Source: a virus
IMG/VR virus record: IMGVR_UViG_3300044998_001357
Location: 1 to 64,000 of that record
Strand: one strand, 5' to 3'
Length of the DNA stretch: 64,000 bases
Shown: positions 2,957-63,501 of the stretch, piece after piece
Numbering within the stretch: position 1 is the stretch's first letter
Layout of the letters: each line of letters begins with the position of its first letter
The notes under the pieces: model-generated
Told to the model about the DNA's origin: nothing
The model's database searches: none
The model's input: the letters and a program-made list of their open reading frames with translations, nothing else
Position numbers and translations under genes: made by a program

Positions 2957-4405
2957 ATGTTTCGCTGGCTGGCCAACCTCTGGAGCACTACGCCGCCGCG
3001 ACCGGGTCGTAGCCGGGTCGTCCGCGTCGTGCGCGGCCGCTACGACGCGGCCGTGACCACCGACGACAACCGCCGCCACTGGGCCAACGCCGACGGCCTG
3101 TCGGCCAACCAGGCTAACAGCGTCGAGGTGCGCCGCGTCCTGCGCAATCGCGCCCGCTACGAGGTCGCCAACAACAGCTACGCCAAGGGCATCGTCCTCA
3201 CACTGGCCAACGACGTGGTCGGGACCGGCCCTCGCCTGCAACTCCTCACCGAGGACTCGAAGGCCAACACCCGCATCGAGCGAGAGTTCACGGCCTGGTC
3301 CAAAGCGATAAGCCTGCCCGAGAAGCTGCGCACCATGCGCATGGCTCGGGCCACCGACGGCGAGGCCTTTGCGGTCTTGACCAGCAACCCGCGACTACCG
3401 ACGCCGGTGCAACTCGACCTGCGGCTAATCGAGGCCGACCAGGTGGCCACGCCGAGCTTTTCCGCCTGGGAGAGGGCTGGAGTCGATGGGATCGTCTTCG
3501 ACGCGGCGGGCAACCCGGTTGAGTACCATGTCCTCAAGGACCACCCAGGGGACGGCTACTGGAATGGGCGCGAGTACGATCGAGTGCCCGCCTCGGCGGT
3601 GCTGCACTGGTTTCGTTGCGACCGGCCGGGCCAGGCGCGGGGTATTCCGGACATCACCCCGGCCCTGCCGCTGTTCGCCCAACTGCGGCGCTTCACTCTG
3701 GCCGTGATCGCCGCCGCCGAGACGGCCGCCGACTTCGCCGGTATCCTCTACACCGACGCGCCCGCCAGCGGGGAGGCCGACGCCGCCGAGCCGTTCGAGC
3801 CGATCGAGTTGGAGAAGCGGGCGCTGGTCACCATGCCCGGCGGCTGGAAGATGAGCCAGCTGCAAGCGGAGCAACCGGCTACCACCTATGCCGAGTTCAA
3901 GCACGAGATCCTCAACGAGATCGCCCGCTGTCTCAACATGCCGTTCAACGTCGCGGCGTGCAACAGCAGCGGCTACAACTACGCGTCCGGTCGGCTCGAC
4001 CATCAGACCTACTTCAAGGCGATTCGCGTCGAGCAGGCCCACCTCGAGGCCGTTGTTCTCGACCGCATCCTCGCGGCCTGGTTCGACGAGGCGGCGCTGA
4101 TCCCCGGCTTACTGCCCGTCGGCTTGGGGCCGCTCGCCGGCTGGCCGCACCAGTGGTTCTGGGACGGGCACGAGCACGTCGATCCCGCTAAGGAGGCCGC
4201 CGCCCAGGCGACCCGCCTAGCCAACCTGACCACCACGCTCGCCGACGAGTACGCCCGCCGTGGCCTCGACTGGGAGGCCCAGTTGCGGCAGCGCGCCAAG
4301 GAGATTGCGCTTATGCAGGAGTTGGGCCTGACCCTGGCGCAAGCTCAACCATTCATCGACCATGATGAGGAATTCGACGATGACATCGACACGTCGGACG
4401 ACTGA
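2957..4405 (+). CDS. Phage portal protein, lambda family
   Basis: LRNRARYEVANNSYA, RPGQARGIP, NYASGRL, VDPAKEA motifs. Confidence 0.92.
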   Translation: MFRWLANLWSTTPPRPGRSRVVRVVRGRYDAAVTTDDNRRHWANADGLSANQANSVEVRRVLRNRARYEVANNSYAKGIVLTLANDVVGTGPRLQLLTEDSKANTRIEREFTAWSKAISLPEKLRTMRMARATDGEAFAVLTSNPRLPTPVQLDLRLIEADQVATPSFSAWERAGVDGIVFDAAGNPVEYHVLKDHPGDGYWNGREYDRVPASAVLHWFRCDRPGQARGIPDITPALPLFAQLRRFTLAVIAAAETAADFAGILYTDAPASGEADAAEPFEPIELEKRALVTMPGGWKMSQLQAEQPATTYAEFKHEILNEIARCLNMPFNVAACNSSGYNYASGRLDHQTYFKAIRVEQAHLEAVVLDRILAAWFDEAALIPGLLPVGLGPLAGWPHQWFWDGHEHVDPAKEAAAQATRLANLTTTLADEYARRGLDWEAQLRQRAKEIALMQELGLTLAQAQPFIDHDEEFDDDIDTSDD

Positions 4406-6332
4406 CGATCAGCCGCCGCGTCAACTGCGGCTAGAAGGTACGGCGGCTCTCGACCTGGAGGCCGCCGCCGAGGACGGAGCGACGCTGCCGCGCTTCCGCA
4501 TGGTCGCCTACACCGGCACGCCAATGCGCGTTGCGGGCTGGCGGTACCCGATCGTCATCGACCTGGCCGGGCTGTCGATCCCGTCGCAGGCCCGACCGAT
4601 CCGCTTCGGCCACGACCCGCTCTCCGGCGTCGGCCACACCGACGCGGTGCGGGTCGAGGACGGACAGCTGGTCGCCACCGGCCTGGTCTCCCGCGACACG
4701 CCGGCGGCCCGCGAAGTTGTGATCTCGGCCAAGAACGGCTTCCCGTGGCAGGCCTCGGTCGGGGCAGGCGTCGAGGAGTTCGAGTTCGTCAAGGAGAACC
4801 AGACGGTGTTGGTCAACGGTCGCACCTTCACCGGCCCGTTGAACGTCGTCCGCAAGTCCACCCTCGGCGAGATCAGCTTCGTCGACCTCGGGGCCGACGG
4901 GAACACCTCGGCCAGTGTTGCCGCATCTCAACCACATCAGGAGGCGTTTATGCCAGACATTAATCATGATCATAATAATGAATCGCCTGCCACTCAGGCG
5001 ATCATCCGCGCGAAAGCAGAGCGCCAGCGAATCGATACAATCCGCGCGCTCGTCGAGGAGGCGGCTAGCAATCGTTACGCCGACATGGACGCCCTGGAGC
5101 AGATCGCGGCTCAGGCGGAATCCGAGGGCTGGGACGCGCAGCGGACCGAGCTAGCGATTCTGCGGGTGACCCGCCCGCGTGCGCCGATTGCGCGTGACCG
5201 ATCGGAGCGCCCGAGTCAACAGGTGCTCGAGGCCGCGCTCTGCATGGCAGCCGGAGTCAGCGACGAGACCCTGGCCCGCGACCGAGACTACGGCGAGCAG
5301 GTCGTGTCGGCGGCCTGGCAGCATCGACGCCGAGGCCTGCGAGGGATCCTCGCCCTGGCCCTCGAGGGGGGCGGCATCCGTGTGCCACATGGCGGCCGAG
5401 AGTTTTACGAAGCGCTCGTGGCTCACCAGCGCATCGAGGCGGCCGGGTTTAGCACGGTGAATCTGCCGGGCATCTTGGGCAATGTCGCGAATAAGATGTT
5501 GCTGGATGCGTTCGAGTCAGCACCTGGCACATATGAACAAATTGCTGCGCAAGAAGATTTCTCGAACTTCCATCAGCATCAAATCTACCGACTTGATGCG
5601 ACCGGCAACTTTGACAAGGTTGCCGACGGCGGCGAAATCAAACATGGTGCGCTCCAAGAATCGGAGTACACCAACAAGCTCGACACTTACGGGATGATGA
5701 TGACCATTACGCGTCAGCAAATCATCAACGATGAATTGTCGGCATTCCGTTCGCTTGTTGGCCAGCTGGGCCGCCGTGCAAAGATCGCGATCGAGCGGGC
5801 GCTCTACGCTGTGGTGATGGAGGCGACGGATACGTTCTACACGGCCGCGCGGGGCAACCGGCTAACCAACGCGGCTCTCGGCATTACGTCGCTCGGATCT
5901 GCACGAAGCGCGCTTGCGAAAATGCAAGACGCCAATGGCGACCCGCTTGCAACGGCTGGCCGGTACCTGCTGGTCCCGACCGAGTTGGAACCGTTGGCGA
6001 TGCAAATCTATACGTCTGTTACGGTCAATGAGACTACCACAGTCGATAAGCCGCGACCCATCAACAATCCTTACGTCAATCGCTACGAACCGATCGGCAG
6101 CCCGTATCTGTCGACCGGCACCGGCGGTGGCCAGTCGCCGACGACCTGGTATCTCTTGGCCGATCCTGCCGTGCTGCCTGCGTTTCAAATCGCATACCTC
6201 GATGGCCGCCGCCAGCCGGTCGTGGAGACGGCGGACGCTGAGTTTAGCACGCTCGGTATGTCCATGCGGGCATACTGGGATTTCGGGGTTGCGCGCATCG
6301 ATCATCGCGGAGCCGTCAAGGCTACCGCATAA
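4380..6332 (+). CDS. Prohead protease / major capsid fusion
   Basis: N-terminal protease-like region (AYTG...H...WQASVG...EISFV) and C-terminal capsid-like region (TYG...ITRQQIINDEL...DFGVARIDHRG); start chosen from GAGG RBS. Confidence 0.85.
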   Translation: MTSTRRTTDDQPPRQLRLEGTAALDLEAAAEDGATLPRFRMVAYTGTPMRVAGWRYPIVIDLAGLSIPSQARPIRFGHDPLSGVGHTDAVRVEDGQLVATGLVSRDTPAAREVVISAKNGFPWQASVGAGVEEFEFVKENQTVLVNGRTFTGPLNVVRKSTLGEISFVDLGADGNTSASVAASQPHQEAFMPDINHDHNNESPATQAIIRAKAERQRIDTIRALVEEAASNRYADMDALEQIAAQAESEGWDAQRTELAILRVTRPRAPIARDRSERPSQQVLEAALCMAAGVSDETLARDRDYGEQVVSAAWQHRRRGLRGILALALEGGGIRVPHGGREFYEALVAHQRIEAAGFSTVNLPGILGNVANKMLLDAFESAPGTYEQIAAQEDFSNFHQHQIYRLDATGNFDKVADGGEIKHGALQESEYTNKLDTYGMMMTITRQQIINDELSAFRSLVGQLGRRAKIAIERALYAVVMEATDTFYTAARGNRLTNAALGITSLGSARSALAKMQDANGDPLATAGRYLLVPTELEPLAMQIYTSVTVNETTTVDKPRPINNPYVNRYEPIGSPYLSTGTGGGQSPTTWYLLADPAVLPAFQIAYLDGRRQPVVETADAEFSTLGMSMRAYWDFGVARIDHRGAVKATA

Positions 6333-40780: not shown

Positions 40781-41000
40781 TTTAACCCTTCTTGTTCTTT
40801 GGCTTTTCTGGGTTACTAGTAATGGTCGTGAACATGGTCTTAGGCCTGTTTACGACCTTTAGCTGAGAACGCTCATCATTCGTGCCCACCTATGCCCCGG
40901 CGATGAGTAAAATCGCCATTGGCGCATGTAAGATTGTTTTGGTATTGATTCGGTGATGACTGGTCTTTGTGGATGTTTACTTGGCCTCCTAGGAGAAAAA

Positions 41001-42134
41001 ATGAAGTCGACACATCGCTCGGAAGTCGTACCAGTGGTTCTGCAGAAGCACCCCAACGCGGATAGCCTATCCATTGTTAAGGTATGGGGCTACACCTGCA
41101 TTGTTCGAACGGTCGACTGGCAGGGAAGGTCGCGTGGCGTTTATATTGTTCCCGATAGCTGCGTGGATGTACGCCGACCGGAGTTCTGTTTCCTGGCGGA
41201 TAAGGCCAAAGAAGATGGGACGTACCGTGTTCGGGTCACCCGGCTGCGCGGCGAACTGAGCTATGGTCTGCTCATTCCCGCCCCGGACTGGGCCGAACTG
41301 GGCCAGGACTTGGCTCCGTATCTGGGTGTGACCCGCTACGAGCCACCGGAACACTCACGTGGCTTCATCGCTTCGGGCGAGGAGGAGGAGGGGCCTGACC
41401 TCTGCACCGGTCCGGAAAAGTACGACGTGGAGGCGTTCGAGCGTTACCACCACCTGCTGGAGGTGAATGAGCCGGTGGTGGTTCTTGAAAAGCTTGACGG
41501 CACCAACATGCGGGCGGTTTACTGGGAGGGTCGTTACTGGGTCAAGACCCGTAATCGTTGGGTCAAGCGCGTGCCGACCTACTCACACATCACCCTAGAT
41601 TCCCTTATCGGTCGTGGCGTGGCGGAAGAGCAGGCCCGGGAAATTGTTGAGCGGATTGCCAATCGCTGCCCTAAACTGAACAGCCACTGGGAGGCTCTCG
41701 AAAATAGTCCGGCCACAATGAAGTTTCTCAAAGAGAATCCGGGGATGACCCTCTACGGCGAGGTGTTTGGCGCGACGAACCGAATTCGCTACTGGAAGCA
41801 TGGCAAGAATCGTTTGGCGGTTTTTGACATCTATGACCAGGGCGTTTTCCTGAATGCCGGCAACACCTGGCGTCTGGGCGTAGCCAACGACCTGGAGATG
41901 GTTCCTGCGTTCACCCCTTTCGCAGGAGGGCGTACCTCGTTTGCTTTTCATGGCACCCCCTACAAGTTCGACACCATCAAGCGGCTGGCCACGGGAACCA
42001 CTCTGGTGGAGGGTGCCGGCTGTGCAGTGATTCGTGAGGGGGTCGTGGTTCGTCCACTCCAGGAGCGTTACGACCCCAAGATTGGCCGGGTGATTCTCAA
42101 ATGTGTCAGTCCTGATTTTTTGGTAAAGGATTAA
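41001..42134 (+). CDS. ATP-dependent RNA ligase (DRB0094/Rnl2-like) with N-terminal OB domain
   Basis: KHPNADSL N-terminus; motifs EKLDG, GEVFG, FDI, EGVVV, LKCVS. Confidence 0.88.
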   Translation: MKSTHRSEVVPVVLQKHPNADSLSIVKVWGYTCIVRTVDWQGRSRGVYIVPDSCVDVRRPEFCFLADKAKEDGTYRVRVTRLRGELSYGLLIPAPDWAELGQDLAPYLGVTRYEPPEHSRGFIASGEEEEGPDLCTGPEKYDVEAFERYHHLLEVNEPVVVLEKLDGTNMRAVYWEGRYWVKTRNRWVKRVPTYSHITLDSLIGRGVAEEQAREIVERIANRCPKLNSHWEALENSPATMKFLKENPGMTLYGEVFGATNRIRYWKHGKNRLAVFDIYDQGVFLNAGNTWRLGVANDLEMVPAFTPFAGGRTSFAFHGTPYKFDTIKRLATGTTLVEGAGCAVIREGVVVRPLQERYDPKIGRVILKCVSPDFLVKD

Positions 42135-43312: not shown

Positions 43313-43681
43313 ATGAGAACTGGATGGATTCTGTTGCTCCTGGTTGGGTTGGTATGGGGTGCTCCGTTGCCCTCGGAGCGACCCCGACCTTCTCTTACTG
43401 CCCACCGCTGGATGATGCGGCACGGTAGCAGTCTTTTTTGGGCGCGTTTCTATCCTTGTGGGCAGTATTACGCGGGGCCTGGAGATAAGTCGGCTATTTT
43501 GTGGCACGGCAACTGGGTTCTGCAGGGCGATATCTTGACCGTTGAAGAATTTTCCATCTGGGATACCGCTAAGGAGAACCGGGTTGTTTACTGGTCGGTG
43601 TGCCTGGATAAGTCTAGCTGGACCGGTGAACGCATTACCTGTTCAGGATTTGTTGATGAGTTTTCTCTTGAAGGAGACTGA
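43313..43681 (+). CDS. Putative secreted protein
   Basis: Signal-peptide-like MRTGWILLLLVGLVWG; W.G.W motif. Confidence 0.5.
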   Translation: MRTGWILLLLVGLVWGAPLPSERPRPSLTAHRWMMRHGSSLFWARFYPCGQYYAGPGDKSAILWHGNWVLQGDILTVEEFSIWDTAKENRVVYWSVCLDKSSWTGERITCSGFVDEFSLEGD

Positions 43682-43682
43682 G

Positions 43683-44448
43683 ATGACCGCGAAAAATCGA
43701 ATCCCTCTTTCCCCCTCGGTTCAAACGCGACAAGACTGGCTTTGAGGACGCAACGGAAATTATTCTGGAAGTCCTCCACGGCGAGGGCGGGCAGGATGCC
43801 AAGCTTTTTGTAGAGCAGCTGGCCGACCTCTACCTCCGCTATGCCGCACGTCATTCGATTCGTGTTTTCGTTCTGGACAAATCGCCGGGTCATTGCGTTT
43901 TTCGGTTGCAGGGCAAGGGGGTGGGCCACCTTTTTGCTCGCGAGGCCGGAAAGCACTGCATTCAACGTATCCCCTCCAACGACCGTTCGGGTCGTCCGCA
44001 AACCTCGTTTGTGAGCGTGGCGGTTCTCCCCTTACCTCCCGAAAACACGGTGACTCCTCTGCCCGAAAACGAACTGCAGATTACCGTCCAGACCGGAAAG
44101 CAAAGGGCCGGTGGCCAAAACGTCAACAAGGTGGCCAGTGCCGTGCGGATGAAACATCTACCCACGGGTTTGTCGGTCTTTATCCATGGTCGAGACCAGG
44201 GCCAGAACAAACAAGAGGCCCGACGCATTCTGACCGCCAAGGTCAATCAGCTACGAAACGCCCAACGACAGGAAGATTACTCCCGACTCAAAAATGGGCA
44301 ACTGGGCGAGCGCGGCCGGGGCGGGAAAATCCGGACCTATAACTTTATCGATGGTCGGGTAACCGACCACCGGAGCGGTCAGACCACCAATAATCTGAAG
44401 GGTCTTATGAAGGGCAACCTCGAGCTTCTTGCAAATCTGTCTGATTAA
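43683..44448 (+). CDS. Class I peptide release factor-like protein lacking domain 1; frame break at CTT-TGA (43740-43745)
   Basis: AAGGAG RBS + ATG 43683; +1 frame encodes IILEVLHGEGGQDAKLF, EAGKH.IQRIP, GGQNVNK..SAVR, KIRTYNF..RVTDHR. Confidence 0.85.
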
Positions 44449-44610
44449 CGTATTCTCGGTCCATCGCCCGGACCGTGGCAAACCAAGAGAATCGACGAAT
44501 GGCTCTCGCTGAGATGTATTCCTCGCCCTGTTCGCTGCACGAAAGGTATCGCCGAATTCTGTTTTTTGCCTTTGCTGGACTGGAGCGTACTTAATCTTGG
44601 AGGTGGTAAA

Positions 44611-44979
44611 ATGTCAACGCTAGAACATGTGCAGATTTGCCTCAGTCAGGCACTTGGAATGCCTATCGACGAAATCTGGGAAGATACTCTGCTGCATGAA
44701 CTGGGGGCCGATAGCCTGGATTTCCTCGATATCACCTTTCGTCTAGAACGTCGTCTGGGAGTCTCCCTGCAAACCACGGCACTGTTCCCGGAGTGGCTTC
44801 TGGAGACCAATTCGGAATACGTGCATCGGGGCAACTTAACCAGCAAGGGTGTCCAGCGACTGACAAAGGAGCATCCCCAAGTGCCGGCCAGGGAAGGGAT
44901 GCCGGCAGGTGATGTGTTAACCGTCGGCTTCCTGGTCCAGGTTCTGGACCGCCTGCTGGTTCCATCGGGAGCAAAATAA
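44611..44979 (+). CDS. Acyl carrier protein (long form)
   Basis: LGADSLDFLDITFRLE phosphopantetheine-attachment motif; GGAGG RBS. Confidence 0.85.
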   Translation: MSTLEHVQICLSQALGMPIDEIWEDTLLHELGADSLDFLDITFRLERRLGVSLQTTALFPEWLLETNSEYVHRGNLTSKGVQRLTKEHPQVPAREGMPAGDVLTVGFLVQVLDRLLVPSGAK

Positions 44980-46029: not shown

Positions 46030-46485
46030 ATGTCGACCAAGATTTCTTGCCTGCTGCTTGTTGATAGCAACGAATCCGAACGCTCGTTGACCCGCCGTAA
46101 ATTGGAAATCGCTCGAGTGAATATCGATACACTCTCGATAGCCACAACCCTCAGTGAGGCGATATCGCTGGTTCAGAAGTCCGACCCGCAGGTGATTCTG
46201 CTTGAGACCGACCTCGCCGATTCGCATGCTCTGGATACGCTCCGGGCGCTGCGACGAATAAGCGAGGCGGCGATTGTCGTTCTGTCTCACGGTGAGGATG
46301 ATTTTTCTGGACTTTGTGCCATCCGGGCCGGGGCCGATGACTATCTTCTCAAAGAGAAGCTAAGTCCCGCTGCCCTGCGACACGCCATCTATAACTCCCT
46401 GTCGCGACACGAATTGAGGCAGGCAACGCAGCGAATGACCGCGCGTATTGAACAACTAGCCATGATTCCTGGGGTGGCTCAATGA
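46030..46485 (+). CDS. Stand-alone response regulator receiver domain (atypical)
   Basis: LLLVDSN...PQVILLE..L.D...IVVLS...AIRAGADDYLLK; phosphoacceptor Asp position appears to be Glu. Confidence 0.8.
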   Translation: MSTKISCLLLVDSNESERSLTRRKLEIARVNIDTLSIATTLSEAISLVQKSDPQVILLETDLADSHALDTLRALRRISEAAIVVLSHGEDDFSGLCAIRAGADDYLLKEKLSPAALRHAIYNSLSRHELRQATQRMTARIEQLAMIPGVAQ

Positions 46486-46873: not shown

Positions 46874-47467
46874 ATGAAAGACTTTGAAGCACTTAAGCAA
46901 ACCTTTTTTCACCGTGTGGCGTGCGGTCCCTACGAGCATCCGACCAGCACCCTTGTCTTAAGCGACATTGTTCTTCATCTCCCCATCCTTGAATACTACG
47001 CCTCACAGTGCGAACATGTGACCGAACTAGGGGTTCGGGGCGGTCAGTCCACCGTCGCCTTGGTTTCGGGCTGTACAGGAGAAGTACATAGCTACGACAT
47101 CGAAAAAACCGACTTTGTTGATTTCTTTCAGACGCTCTACAAGCCCTGTTCCTGGTTTTTCCATCAGGGCGACACTGCCAATCCGTCTCTTGGAATTCAG
47201 GACACGGATTTGCTATTCATCGACACATTGCATACATATAATCATGTGAAGCAAGAGCTTAATCTTTGGGGCAGGAAGGCGCGAAAGTACCTCATCTTCC
47301 ATGACACTTTCACCTGCGGGTATCTCGATATCAGTGGTCCTGACCCGACCCAGCCGGGCATTCTCAAGGCGATTGAGGAGTTCCTGGCGAGCTATCCAGG
47401 AGAATACGAAACCGTTTATCAAACCAAATGTTGCAATGGGCTATGGGTGCTGAAGCGATGCAGTTAA
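46874..47467 (+). CDS. Class I SAM-dependent methyltransferase (Methyltransf_24-like)
   Basis: VTELGVRGG.ST, DLLFIDTLH.Y, IFHDT. Confidence 0.85.
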   Translation: MKDFEALKQTFFHRVACGPYEHPTSTLVLSDIVLHLPILEYYASQCEHVTELGVRGGQSTVALVSGCTGEVHSYDIEKTDFVDFFQTLYKPCSWFFHQGDTANPSLGIQDTDLLFIDTLHTYNHVKQELNLWGRKARKYLIFHDTFTCGYLDISGPDPTQPGILKAIEEFLASYPGEYETVYQTKCCNGLWVLKRCS

Positions 47468-60739: not shown

Positions 60740-61541
60740 TTCTAGTCGTCGAATTGTCTCGGTGGGCTACAACGGCTTTGCTCGTGGCGTGGACGACACC
60801 CCAGAGCGGTATCTGGAGCGCGAACTTAAGTATCGTCTCATTGTGCATTGTGAACGCAATGCTCTTCTGTTCGCGGACACCCACCGACTTAAGGGCGCGA
60901 CCCTGTACACCTGGCCGTTCATGAGTTGCTCGGTTTGTGCGGGTATGGTCATTCAGTCGGGAATCAGGCGGTGTGTGGCTCCTTTTATCCCCGAGGACAA
61001 GCGTGAGCGTTGGGAGGCGGATATGAAGCTGGCCACCCAGCAGTTCCAGGAGGCGGGGGTGGAGCTCTGTCTGCTTGATGGTCGATTCGAATTTGTTAGT
61101 GACTTCATAGACCACCACAACATGAAGATTGTTGCGAGTTCTGGCCATTTCGACCCCCTTCACGAGGGTCATCTGCGTTACCTAGAGGCGGCCTCACGTC
61201 TGGGGGATTTTCACGTGGTGATTGTCAACAGTGACGCTCAACTTTGTCTAAAGGGTCGTCAACCTTTGCTCAACGAACAACAGCGACTGGAAGTAATTCG
61301 CTCGCTCAAATTCGTCGATGCCGCCGTGCTCTCGGTCGACCAGGACCGCTCGGTCGCGCAGACACTACAAAATATTCGGCCTGCTGTTTTCGCCAATGGT
61401 GGCGATGTGGTTGACGAAAGCCAGTGTCGTGAAGCCATGACCTGCCGATTCCTGGGAATCCAGATGGTTTTTGGTGTGGGAGGTTCCCACAAAATCGCTT
61501 CCTCTAGTGAGCTCCTCGGACGGTTTGTCAAGTCCTCTTGA
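60645..61541 (+). CDS. dCMP deaminase fused to cytidylyltransferase-like domain
   Basis: SKDPST..GAVIV...GYNG...HCE.NA...CxxC, then SGHFDPLHEGH (HxGH)...NSD...ANGGD...SSS. Confidence 0.85.
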   Translation: MCKWDWRFLKLARQVASWSKDPSTQTGAVIVDSSRRIVSVGYNGFARGVDDTPERYLERELKYRLIVHCERNALLFADTHRLKGATLYTWPFMSCSVCAGMVIQSGIRRCVAPFIPEDKRERWEADMKLATQQFQEAGVELCLLDGRFEFVSDFIDHHNMKIVASSGHFDPLHEGHLRYLEAASRLGDFHVVIVNSDAQLCLKGRQPLLNEQQRLEVIRSLKFVDAAVLSVDQDRSVAQTLQNIRPAVFANGGDVVDESQCREAMTCRFLGIQMVFGVGGSHKIASSSELLGRFVKSS

Positions 61542-61587
61542 TGGTGTATCTGACTGGGCTGTCTCAAGACTGTTCGGGAGAATGATA

Positions 61588-63501
61588 ATGAGTATTTTTG
61601 AGAAACGTACGGCTTTCAAGCCGTTCGAATACCCAGATATTGTCAAATTCAAGGAGGCTATTAACCATAGCTATTGGTTGGTGAGCGAGTGGACGTTCTT
61701 GTCCGATTTGGATGATTTTCATACCCGGCTCACCCCGGTCGAGCGTTCCGCCGTCAAGAACGCCCTGCTGGCCATTTCGCAGGTGGAAGTGGCCGTCAAG
61801 AAGTTCTGGGGGCGTCTGGGAGACCGAATCCCCAAGCCCGAGTTCGAGCAGGTAGGGGCGACGTTCGCGGAATGTTTTGCCGATGGTACGGAGGTGCTTA
61901 CCCCGACCGGATGGGTAGACCTGGCCGAGGTCGTGGTGGGAGACGAGGTTCTTCAGTTTAACCAGGACGGCTCTTTCTCTTTTGCTCGGGTGACTCATAA
62001 GGTAGACCGCGAGTACACCGGTCCGATACATCGTTTCCACAATAGAAACACAGAAATACTTGTTACTCCTAATCATAGAATGGTTTGCTTTAATAAAGCC
62101 GGCGAGTACATTGTGACCACTGCCGAAAACCTCTCTGTGCGAAACACCAATCTGTTTCTTCCCGAGGCGGGTCGGCTGGTCGGCGATGGCGCTACCGAAC
62201 TGTCGTTCGAAGAACGGTTGCGTGTGGCCATCCAGGCCGATGGTAATCGCCCAACGACGGGCCGGCGACCGCGATTGGGAGATGGGTCCGGGGTTGAATA
62301 CGAAATCCGTATTAGCGAGCCACGCAAGGTCGAGCGACTAGACTGGATTCTTTCCAATCTTCCTGCGATTGGGTCGTCCAAACGACCCATTCCTTCGCAT
62401 CCAGGCATGTTTTGTTACACGATTGGGATTGATGCAGAATACAACTACAAAGAATTTGACTGGGTTACTCTTGTCGGGAAAACAGCAGAGTGGTGCGAGG
62501 ATTTTATTCAAGAACTCGCGGAGTGGGATGGAACACGACCGGCTGGTAAGAAGGTGAAGTATTCCACTACCAATCGGGCAGCCGCCGACGTGGCTCAGAT
62601 GGTTGGGGTCGGAGCGGGTTACCGAGTTCACCTTGGAACCTACACGGATAAGCGCAAGGATGTGTATATCGTCTCTTTCACTTGCAATAGAGAGCGGGTT
62701 AACTTGCCGTCGCTTAAGAGGGAGGTGGTGGACTACTCGGGGTGGGTGCGATGTGTGACGGTTCCTTCAGGTGCCATCATTACCCGGTATAATGACCAGA
62801 CTTTTATTGCCGGCAACTGTGAGGTGCGCCATGCGGATGCTTATTCTCATCTCCTGGAAATTCTGGGCCTGAATACTGACTTTGAGTTATTACTCAAAAT
62901 TCCAGAGATGCAGGGACGGGTGGAATATCTAGGTGAGTCTGTTCGGAGTGGACCCACCAATTCTGATTTCGCTTCTACATTGTCACTCTTCTCTCTTTTT
63001 GTAGAGAATGTGTCGTTATTTGGACAGTTTCTTGTGGTGAAAAGTATCAACAAGCATCGAAACTTGTTGAAAGATATTGACAATGTCATTCAGGCCACTC
63101 AACAGGAAGAGACTATTCACGCTCGGTTTGGGGCGTTTTTGGTCAATCTTATCAAGGCTGAGCACCCCGAGTGGTTTAACGATGATTTTGTCGTCCGTGT
63201 GCGTGAGGCGTGTCTGCGTGCGTATAAGTATGAGCATGCAATCATAAATTGGATTTATTCCGGCGGTGACCTTCCCTACCTTCCTCGCGAGGACATTTTT
63301 ACGTTCCTGCAGCACCGCTTCAACACCAGCCTGGCGATGATTGGTATCGAACCTCTCTTCGAGGTGGACCAGGCCCGGCTCGATAAAACCTTCTGGTTTG
63401 ATGAGGAAGTCCTGACCGAAACCCGAACCGACTTCTTCCACAAACGACCTGTCTCCTATTCCAAGCACAATAAGCCCGTGAATGCGGAGGATTTGTTCTA
63501 A
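61588..63501 (+). CDS. nrdB: Ribonucleotide reductase class I beta subunit with intein
   Basis: KPFEYP, AISQVEVAVKKFW, E(C)EVRHADAYS, ENVSLF.QF, EE.IH, DFF.KRP..Y. Confidence 0.92.
   Translation: MSIFEKRTAFKPFEYPDIVKFKEAINHSYWLVSEWTFLSDLDDFHTRLTPVERSAVKNALLAISQVEVAVKKFWGRLGDRIPKPEFEQVGATFAECFADGTEVLTPTGWVDLAEVVVGDEVLQFNQDGSFSFARVTHKVDREYTGPIHRFHNRNTEILVTPNHRMVCFNKAGEYIVTTAENLSVRNTNLFLPEAGRLVGDGATELSFEERLRVAIQADGNRPTTGRRPRLGDGSGVEYEIRISEPRKVERLDWILSNLPAIGSSKRPIPSHPGMFCYTIGIDAEYNYKEFDWVTLVGKTAEWCEDFIQELAEWDGTRPAGKKVKYSTTNRAAADVAQMVGVGAGYRVHLGTYTDKRKDVYIVSFTCNRERVNLPSLKREVVDYSGWVRCVTVPSGAIITRYNDQTFIAGNCEVRHADAYSHLLEILGLNTDFELLLKIPEMQGRVEYLGESVRSGPTNSDFASTLSLFSLFVENVSLFGQFLVVKSINKHRNLLKDIDNVIQATQQEETIHARFGAFLVNLIKAEHPEWFNDDFVVRVREACLRAYKYEHAIINWIYSGGDLPYLPREDIFTFLQHRFNTSLAMIGIEPLFEVDQARLDKTFWFDEEVLTETRTDFFHKRPVSYSKHNKPVNAEDLF
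61873..62817 (+). mobile_element. Intein (315 aa) with LAGLIDADG-like endonuclease in nrdB
   Basis: Starts CFADGTEVLT, block B VTPNHR, motifs AIQADG and LAEWDG, ends IAGN followed by Cys+1. Confidence 0.9.

Follow-up and report, generated by a model that had tools for sequence, protein, structure and literature searches.

Release at UGA is the task of RF2, RF1-type factors read UAA and UAG, and UAA is read by both host factors. The +1 frameshift at CUU-UGA is a textbook case of translational autoregulation, which the literature searched treats for RF2 genes only, and the leader ORF of E. coli prfB has about 25 codons. The prfB cassette is made up of an SD-like AGGGGG, a 3-nt spacer and CUU UGA C (PMC12421855). 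In the survey of 12,753 genomes by Prince et al. 2025 (PMC12421855), CTTTGA, an AGGGGG-like SD and C at +4 were hyper-conserved in prfB, TAG was never the gating stop among 8,164 prfB genes, and no conserved frameshift was seen in prfA; a UAG/RF1 counterpart was stated as unknown by Atkins et al. 2016 (PMC5009743). The latter work also notes a giant-virus release-factor gene with readthrough and frameshifting, the Mimivirus/Megavirus gene of PMC3521657. That gene resembles the one described here as a viral termination factor whose synthesis needs recoding at stop codons, and differs from it in being of the eRF1 eukaryote/archaeal type, in belonging to an amoeba virus, in its unrelated sequence and in its other signals. 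The literature searched, the coverage of which is incomplete, yielded no account of frameshifting in a release-factor gene of a phage or of RF1 type, so that absence is not proven.

It is proposed here, with a probability of roughly 0.8, that a phage gene uses a prfB-like programmed +1 frameshift to yield a class-I release factor without domain 1, the synthesis of which would depend on slow UGA termination. The gene shares with prfB the CUU UGA hexamer, a short leader ORF (20 codons in the present case) and the gating of a class-I release factor, and its family is enriched both in C at +4 and in an SD-like element at a distance of 3 nt from the CUU, on the 5' side. It differs from prfB in that the gated protein is RF1-type and not RF2-type, and in that domain 2 follows immediately on the site, domain 1 being missing. 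Our locus lacks the SD-like element and has G at +4; among its relatives UAG occupies 44% of the sites, compared with none of the 8,164 prfB genes (PMC12421855), and a third have two tandem sites. A further difference is expected at UGA sites, where the phage product should not recognise the stop that gates it.

The shift cassette and the release-factor frame

The window, which is the whole stretch of DNA analysed, covers 64 kb from the start of a virus record of 148,783 bp, which has a completeness rating of 99%. By frame and ORF inspection we confirmed the layout given in an earlier note on this sequence, namely a strong ribosome-binding site and a 20-codon frame ending CTT TGA G, followed by a release-factor body in the +1 frame. 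The Shine-Dalgarno AAGGAG (43671-43676, + strand, like the other elements of the locus) lies 6 nt 5' of the leader ATG at 43683, and the TGA of the upstream gene (43679-81) falls between the two. The leader ORF in frame 0 (43683-43745) consists of 20 codons (MTAKNR...QDWL) plus TGA and is translated as MTAKNRIPLSPSVQTRQDWL, followed by the stop. The cassette observed at its end (43737-43746) places TGG as the E-site codon, CTT (43740-42) in the P site, TGA (43743-45) in the A site and G (43746) at +4. The release-factor body occupies the +1 frame from 43744 to 44448, with 234 codons plus TAA at 44446-48, giving a predicted product of 20 + 234 = 254 aa. This frame is closed by a TGA at 43684-86 that overlaps the start codon and is open from there to the TAA; its first ATG, GTG or TTG is the TTG at 43906, exactly as the earlier note had it.

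Two elements of a prfB-like cassette are present in the window: a short leader ORF that has a start codon and an SD of its own (AAGGAG-N6-ATG), and the slippery CUU followed by the U of an in-frame stop. The weak-termination C at +4 is absent, the base being G. No internal SD-like 4-mer was found in the window 3 nt 5' of CUU, where CGACAAGAC precedes TGG CTT, and the caveat raised on this point was correct. No downstream stimulatory RNA structure was detected 3' of the window site (z = -0.78), and a search of the whole window against Rfam at gathering thresholds gave no match. Because the window has no internal SD and has G instead of C at +4, shift efficiency may be low. Leader codons 9-10 read CTT TCC (43707-43712) at the place where 36 relatives have a second CTT-stop; this may be a relic of a lost upstream first shift site, which is an inference only.

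Conservation of the frame break in a family of release factors

A protein search uncovered a large family of short RF1-like proteins of about 205-290 aa. We fetched 130 homologous loci, comprising 28 IMG/VR phage contigs (mostly of 50-570 kb), 22 MAG-binned contigs (Pirellulaceae, Obscuribacterales/Melainabacteria and others) and 80 metagenome contigs, and a scripted frame analysis of this set yielded 114 distinct family loci with 40-63% protein identity. In 98 of them (86%) we observed a CTT with a stop codon directly behind it, in the -1 frame with respect to the body. By chance, such a pair within a 20-codon stretch and in the right frame is expected in about 2% (2.1%) of loci, a rate taken from the hexamer frequency in the same DNA. 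The binomial tail for 98/114 is 3e-145 with relatedness ignored. The modal position of the site, 12 codons before the G.GG motif (47 loci), is also that of the window, and 81 of the 98 loci lack any start codon in the body frame at a distance of 8 or more codons before that motif. A true SPF-type RF2 among the weaker matches (L049) serves as a positive control, since its canonical TCT CTT TGA C was picked up by the same script. The earlier note would have counted its reading refuted by homologues that are continuous ORFs matching the +1 frame upstream of the hexamer; the alignment revealed no such continuous ORFs, and both the frame break and the CTT-stop are kept at the same place, which supports the prfB-like gating that it had suggested.

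The surroundings of the site are also constrained. Family leaders have their own ATG in 70 loci and are 21 codons long at the median; most open with a Lys-rich M-S/T-K-basic stretch (MSKK...), and their last two residues are Cys-Leu or Trp-Leu. UGU, UGC or UGG serves as the E-site codon in 68 of the 98 loci, and since these codons encode Cys or Trp, they point to a constraint on the nucleotides and not on the residue. At +4, 69% have C and 20% have G. Within the 9 nt before the E-site codon, an SD-like 4-mer occurs in 42/98 loci (43%) versus 84/686 control windows (12%), an enrichment with an odds ratio of 5.4 (p = 6e-12). About 12 relatives without a shift site have a plain ATG just before domain 2. 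In two loci (L018 and L096) GTT TGA replaces CTT TGA at the homologous place; GTT is a possible variant of the slippery codon, with re-pairing on UUU as well.

The stretch at 43744-43905 (54 codons), which lies between the cassette and the first possible start codon of the body frame, encodes the most conserved block of the family, including the invariant G.GG.D motif. Gene calls in the family begin inside this block or bear unrelated N-termini, and the call P0002 on a near-identical contig is of 175 aa only; gene callers truncate frameshift-gated genes or assign spurious N-termini to them. An independent assembly, a 23-kb Logan contig from run SRR35365481, is identical to the window across leader and site (401/401 nt), and the protein that it encodes is 99% identical to the window factor. 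The window locus has no DNA similarity to GenBank phages. In a GenBank protein search LR756511.1, a 595-kb uncultured phage, was the only family member, the other matches being ordinary RF1/RF2 at 30-36% identity. Two loci with CTT TAG C sites (L044 and L046) come from MAGs of Melainabacteria/Obscuribacter, on contigs of 1.1 Mb and 759 kb; on the basis of these very long MAG contigs, the gene may also be chromosomal or prophage-borne in Obscuribacterales.

Identity of the gating stop and tandem sites

The gating stop of the 98 loci is TGA in 54, TAG in 43 and TAA in one, and on a FastTree phylogeny of 108 proteins the state of the site (TGA, TAG, TAA or none) changes at least 26 times. Sister or near-identical proteins differ in their gating stop (TAG/TGA; L128 versus L130, and L035/L040 versus L036/L037), and the near-identical proteins of L006 and L007 have TAA and TAG, respectively. 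TAA, by way of which TGA and TAG are linked in single steps, is seen only once. Comparison of the site stop with the stop usage of neighbouring genes revealed no clear difference (TAG 26% versus 19%, TGA 37% versus 36%). The recognition loop of the encoded protein has no link to the stop type either, PPT being combined 37 times with TGA and 21 times with TAG; PxN-D is found with both TGA and TAG sites. A link of the PxN loop to TGA sites, which held in 4/4 cases at first, was ruled out by L014 (PDN) and L107 (PKN), both with TAG sites.

A second CTT-stop lies 10-23 codons upstream of the first-described site in 36/98 loci, often with a different stop, and about a third of the relatives are therefore predicted to need two successive +1 shifts. 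At the tandem loci a mini-leader (MSKKNRR-C/W/Y-L, e.g. MSKKNRRCL) ends at the first CTT-stop. The pairs are TAG then TGA in 10 loci, and TAA then TGA or TAG in 8. Two tandem sites were inspected by eye, one at L003:2926-3008, among the nearest relatives of the window, and one at L133 (LR756511.1):123-199.

The encoded factor

The body matches Pfam PCRF at positions 97-194 of 194 together with the whole RF-1 domain. As the PCRF match starts only at model position 97, domain 1 is absent, as the earlier note had claimed, and with it the part contacting the L11 stalk and RF3. The match to the RF1 model likewise begins at position 101-109, and the full-length RF1 architecture is not met. The body scores 198 bits for RF1 (NCBIfam NF001859, 197.7 bits with a cut-off of 400; TIGR00019, 185.5 with a cut-off of 423), 143 for RF2, 50 for PrfH (TIGR03072, 49.8 with a cut-off of 166.65) and 26 for ArfB (cut-off 100, over 32 residues only, the decoding domain being present in the body). 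In a search of PDB sequences the body matched T. thermophilus RF1 (E = 2.5e-40), and identity to solved RF1 chains over domains 2-4 is 36-38%. An AlphaFold (AF2) model built from a 46-sequence family alignment reached a pLDDT of 92.9, and no other disruption was found in the body; superposed with Foldseek on ribosome-bound RF1, the model gave a TM of 0.90 and about 2 A rmsd over about 235 residues. The model and its superposition indicate that the body is a complete RF1-type domain 2-3-4 module without domain 1.

The roles of the RF1 contact residues in reading U1, A2 and the third base are known from published structures of RF1 termination complexes. The helix-alpha5 decoding motif GEGGQDA (43780-43800) aligns with G114-A120 of T. 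thermophilus RF1, with Glu119 changed to Asp. The recognition loop QRIPSNDRSGRPQTS (43963-44007) aligns with Q181-S195; Q181, P184 and T194 are kept, T186 is changed to N, E187 to D and H193 to Q. The tripeptide at 43972-80 is PSN and does not meet the RF1-type PxT, so that the non-standard specificity loop noticed earlier is real; it is not unique, being a case of a PxN-D variant that recurs and has arisen several times in a family whose usual form is PPT-E. Asp at the Glu119 position is invariant family-wide, and Gln at the His193 position is the majority state. The catalytic GGQ (GGT GGC CAA, 44110-44118) stands in the context RAGGQNVNK and is invariant in the family. The statement that GGQ is intact holds for this motif, and the GGQ that the earlier note quoted in HGEGGQDAK belongs to the helix-alpha5 motif (G-x-G-G-x-D/E-A). 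The RF1-like C-terminus KIRTYNF..RVTDHR is retained, as had been reported. Because E119D, T186N and H193Q differ from RF1, codon specificity, and even release activity, cannot be read from the sequence.

The factor resembles RF1 (prfA; TIGR00019 / NF001859) in domains 2-4, GGQ, Q181, P184, T194 and its C-terminal motifs. It differs from RF1 in the missing domain 1 (about 100 residues), in an HMM score of 198 below the cut-off of 400, and in having PSN for PxT, Asp for Glu119 and Gln for His193; in addition, no programmed frameshift is known in prfA (PMC12421855, PMC5009743). With PrfH (RF-H), which is paired with RtcB2, the factor has in common that domain 1 is missing and GGQ is kept, whereas PrfH has lost the stop-codon-reading elements and the window factor reaches only 50 bits with a cut-off of 167 and has no RtcB partner. 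To our knowledge, no frameshift has been described for prfH.

Genomic context

The window encodes terminase, portal, a capsid-protease fusion, tape measure and a large serine integrase. The fusion (4362-6332) is a 656-aa protein combining capsid protease and major head protein according to PHROG matches, and a 676-aa ORF at 61471-63501 joins a PhoH-like/RNR-like N-terminal part to a ribonucleotide reductase small subunit, again by PHROG matches. The phage genome has 54.8% G+C and no tRNA genes, and a crude ORF set in the standard code covers 90% of it; the 163 ORFs end in TGA (74), TAA (63) and TAG (26), UGA making up 45%. As the code is standard, all three stops are in use and tRNA genes are absent, the UGA of the window site is a real stop. 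The frameshift-gated gene is the only one with release-factor domains in the phage genome.

Its neighbours encode an Rnl-type RNA ligase, an HNH endonuclease, an unknown exported-looking protein, an ACP-like protein and a response-regulator receiver. The RNA ligase (Pfam RNA_ligase plus a PHA02142 OB domain; 40953-42134) lies two genes upstream of the release factor, an arrangement that recalls the RtcB2-PrfH pairing; no RtcB partner was found among the window neighbours. Downstream of the release factor are the ACP-like (PP-binding) protein (44566-44979), the stand-alone response-regulator receiver (46030-46485) and a Methyltransf_24 protein (46874-47467). No conserved neighbour or operon partner emerged, since tblastn with 16 window neighbours gave only two single matches. 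The RNA ligase neighbour was present by tblastn in 1 of about 115 loci, and its family is not among the 25 most frequent Pfam families of 116 flanking proteins of the relatives, among which Pfam detected only scattered HNH endonucleases, one RRF and one nucleotidyltransferase.

Proposed mechanism and alternative explanations

All steps of the mechanism that we propose are inferred from the sequence and from the prfB precedent. Ribosomes would initiate at ATG 43683 with its strong SD, translate 20 codons and then pause, the P site being occupied by Leu-tRNA on CUU and the A site presenting UGA-G. Fast reading of the UGA by RF2 would release the 20-residue peptide and yield no factor, and slow termination would allow Leu-tRNA to slip from CUU to UUU, with GAG at 43744 as the next codon and the 254-aa protein as the outcome. 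The product would be a short basic leader fused to RF1-type domains 2-4, that is, the decoding domain and the GGQ domain, and its synthesis would be coupled inversely to the capacity of the cell for UGA termination. The programmed frameshift is strongly supported by the comparative evidence, and for the slip itself there is no expression, ribosome-profiling or peptide evidence. The dependence on RF2 is likewise inferred only, and the suggestion that the gene acts as a sensor of RF2 activity is plausible. The factor is most likely a stop-codon-dependent class-I release factor in the infected cell, its release activity being an inference. Since UAA and UAG are the stops that RF1-type factors read, a prfB-like feedback loop would be closed at the UAG sites of relatives; at the window the negative feedback of prfB is not obviously closed, because an RF1-type product is not expected to read UGA. 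The UGA site of the window would close no feedback loop unless the altered pocket reads UGA.

It is possible, though doubtful, that the pocket does so. The factor would then have a broad specificity and read UGA in addition to UAG and UAA, and its site would be a true prfB-like autoregulatory loop. The many flips between TGA and TAG among close relatives make the two stops look interchangeable for the gene, and ten relatives place TAG and TGA sites in tandem. The pocket moreover departs from RF1 at positions that are universal in RF1/RF2 (E119 to D in all members, H193 to Q in most), and the loop mixes the RF1-like QRxPxT with the RF2-like GRR(H/Q)TSF. However, the Pro that opens the tripeptide is RF1-type, as is Gln181, no residue change follows the stop type, PPT and PxN each occurring with both stops, and a need for any weak stop would explain the interchangeable stops equally well. 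Two readings, which computation cannot separate, fit the free exchange of TGA for TAG, the scarcity of TAA and the tandem TAG+TGA gates: in one, expression is coupled to general termination capacity through any weak stop; in the other, the factor senses itself through a broadened specificity. The idea of a phage-borne class-I factor of bacterial type that has gained a broader specificity, perhaps for all three stops, and controls its own synthesis by a +1 shift on whichever weak stop is at hand (UGA or UAG) remains tentative. If it were true, the tandem UAG+UGA sites of relatives would be an AND gate on total termination capacity, and the PSN-D / Gln193 / Asp119 pocket would be a natural solution to G at the second stop-codon position.

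The earlier note had also considered a role in ribosome rescue. A stop-codon-independent rescue factor of the PrfH or ArfB kind, made upon ribosome stalling, would account for the missing domain 1, as in PrfH, and for the altered tripeptide and His193, and the Rnl-type RNA ligase two genes upstream could be compared with the RtcB2-PrfH pair. We nevertheless consider this role improbable. The HMM scores fall far short of the cut-offs (50 bits versus 167 for PrfH and 26 versus 100 for ArfB), the ligase is a neighbour in a single locus, and the family keeps the alpha5 motif, Q181, P184, T194 and mostly PxT, which rescue factors have lost. Because most decoding elements are retained, rescue is less likely than stop-codon-dependent release.

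The absence of any frameshift is still harder to uphold. The locus would then hold a gene for a 20-aa peptide and a separate truncated factor starting at TTG 43906, or a factor with a non-canonical start in the +1 frame, and this is exactly how gene callers annotate it (the 175-aa P0002 on the near-identical contig). The 54 codons before 43906 are, however, the best conserved of the family, which is not expected if they are untranslated, no SD precedes 43906, and the only strong SD serves the 0-frame ATG. Reinitiation at the TTG within CTTTGA was ruled out, as this triplet lies in the third frame and hence the wrong one.

A pseudogene or a one-base sequencing or assembly error, which the earlier note thought an equally good explanation since a single indel between 43686 and 43742 would likewise join the frames, is already refuted as far as comparative data can do so, because the second assembly is identical, 98/114 diverged loci share the same frame break and CTT-stop, and the body is otherwise undisrupted and folds with high confidence.

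Significance

What is new is a known recoding mechanism on a branch of RF1-type factors that lacks domain 1. The device known from RF2 genes here gates an RF1-type gene, at UGA or UAG, singly or in tandem, in a large family mainly of big phages. This family is a natural test bed for relating stop identity and context to frameshift efficiency, and its domain-1-less factor with a changed decoding pocket has a specificity that can be measured. The arrangement also hints that large phages keep watch on the termination capacity of their hosts and supplement it.
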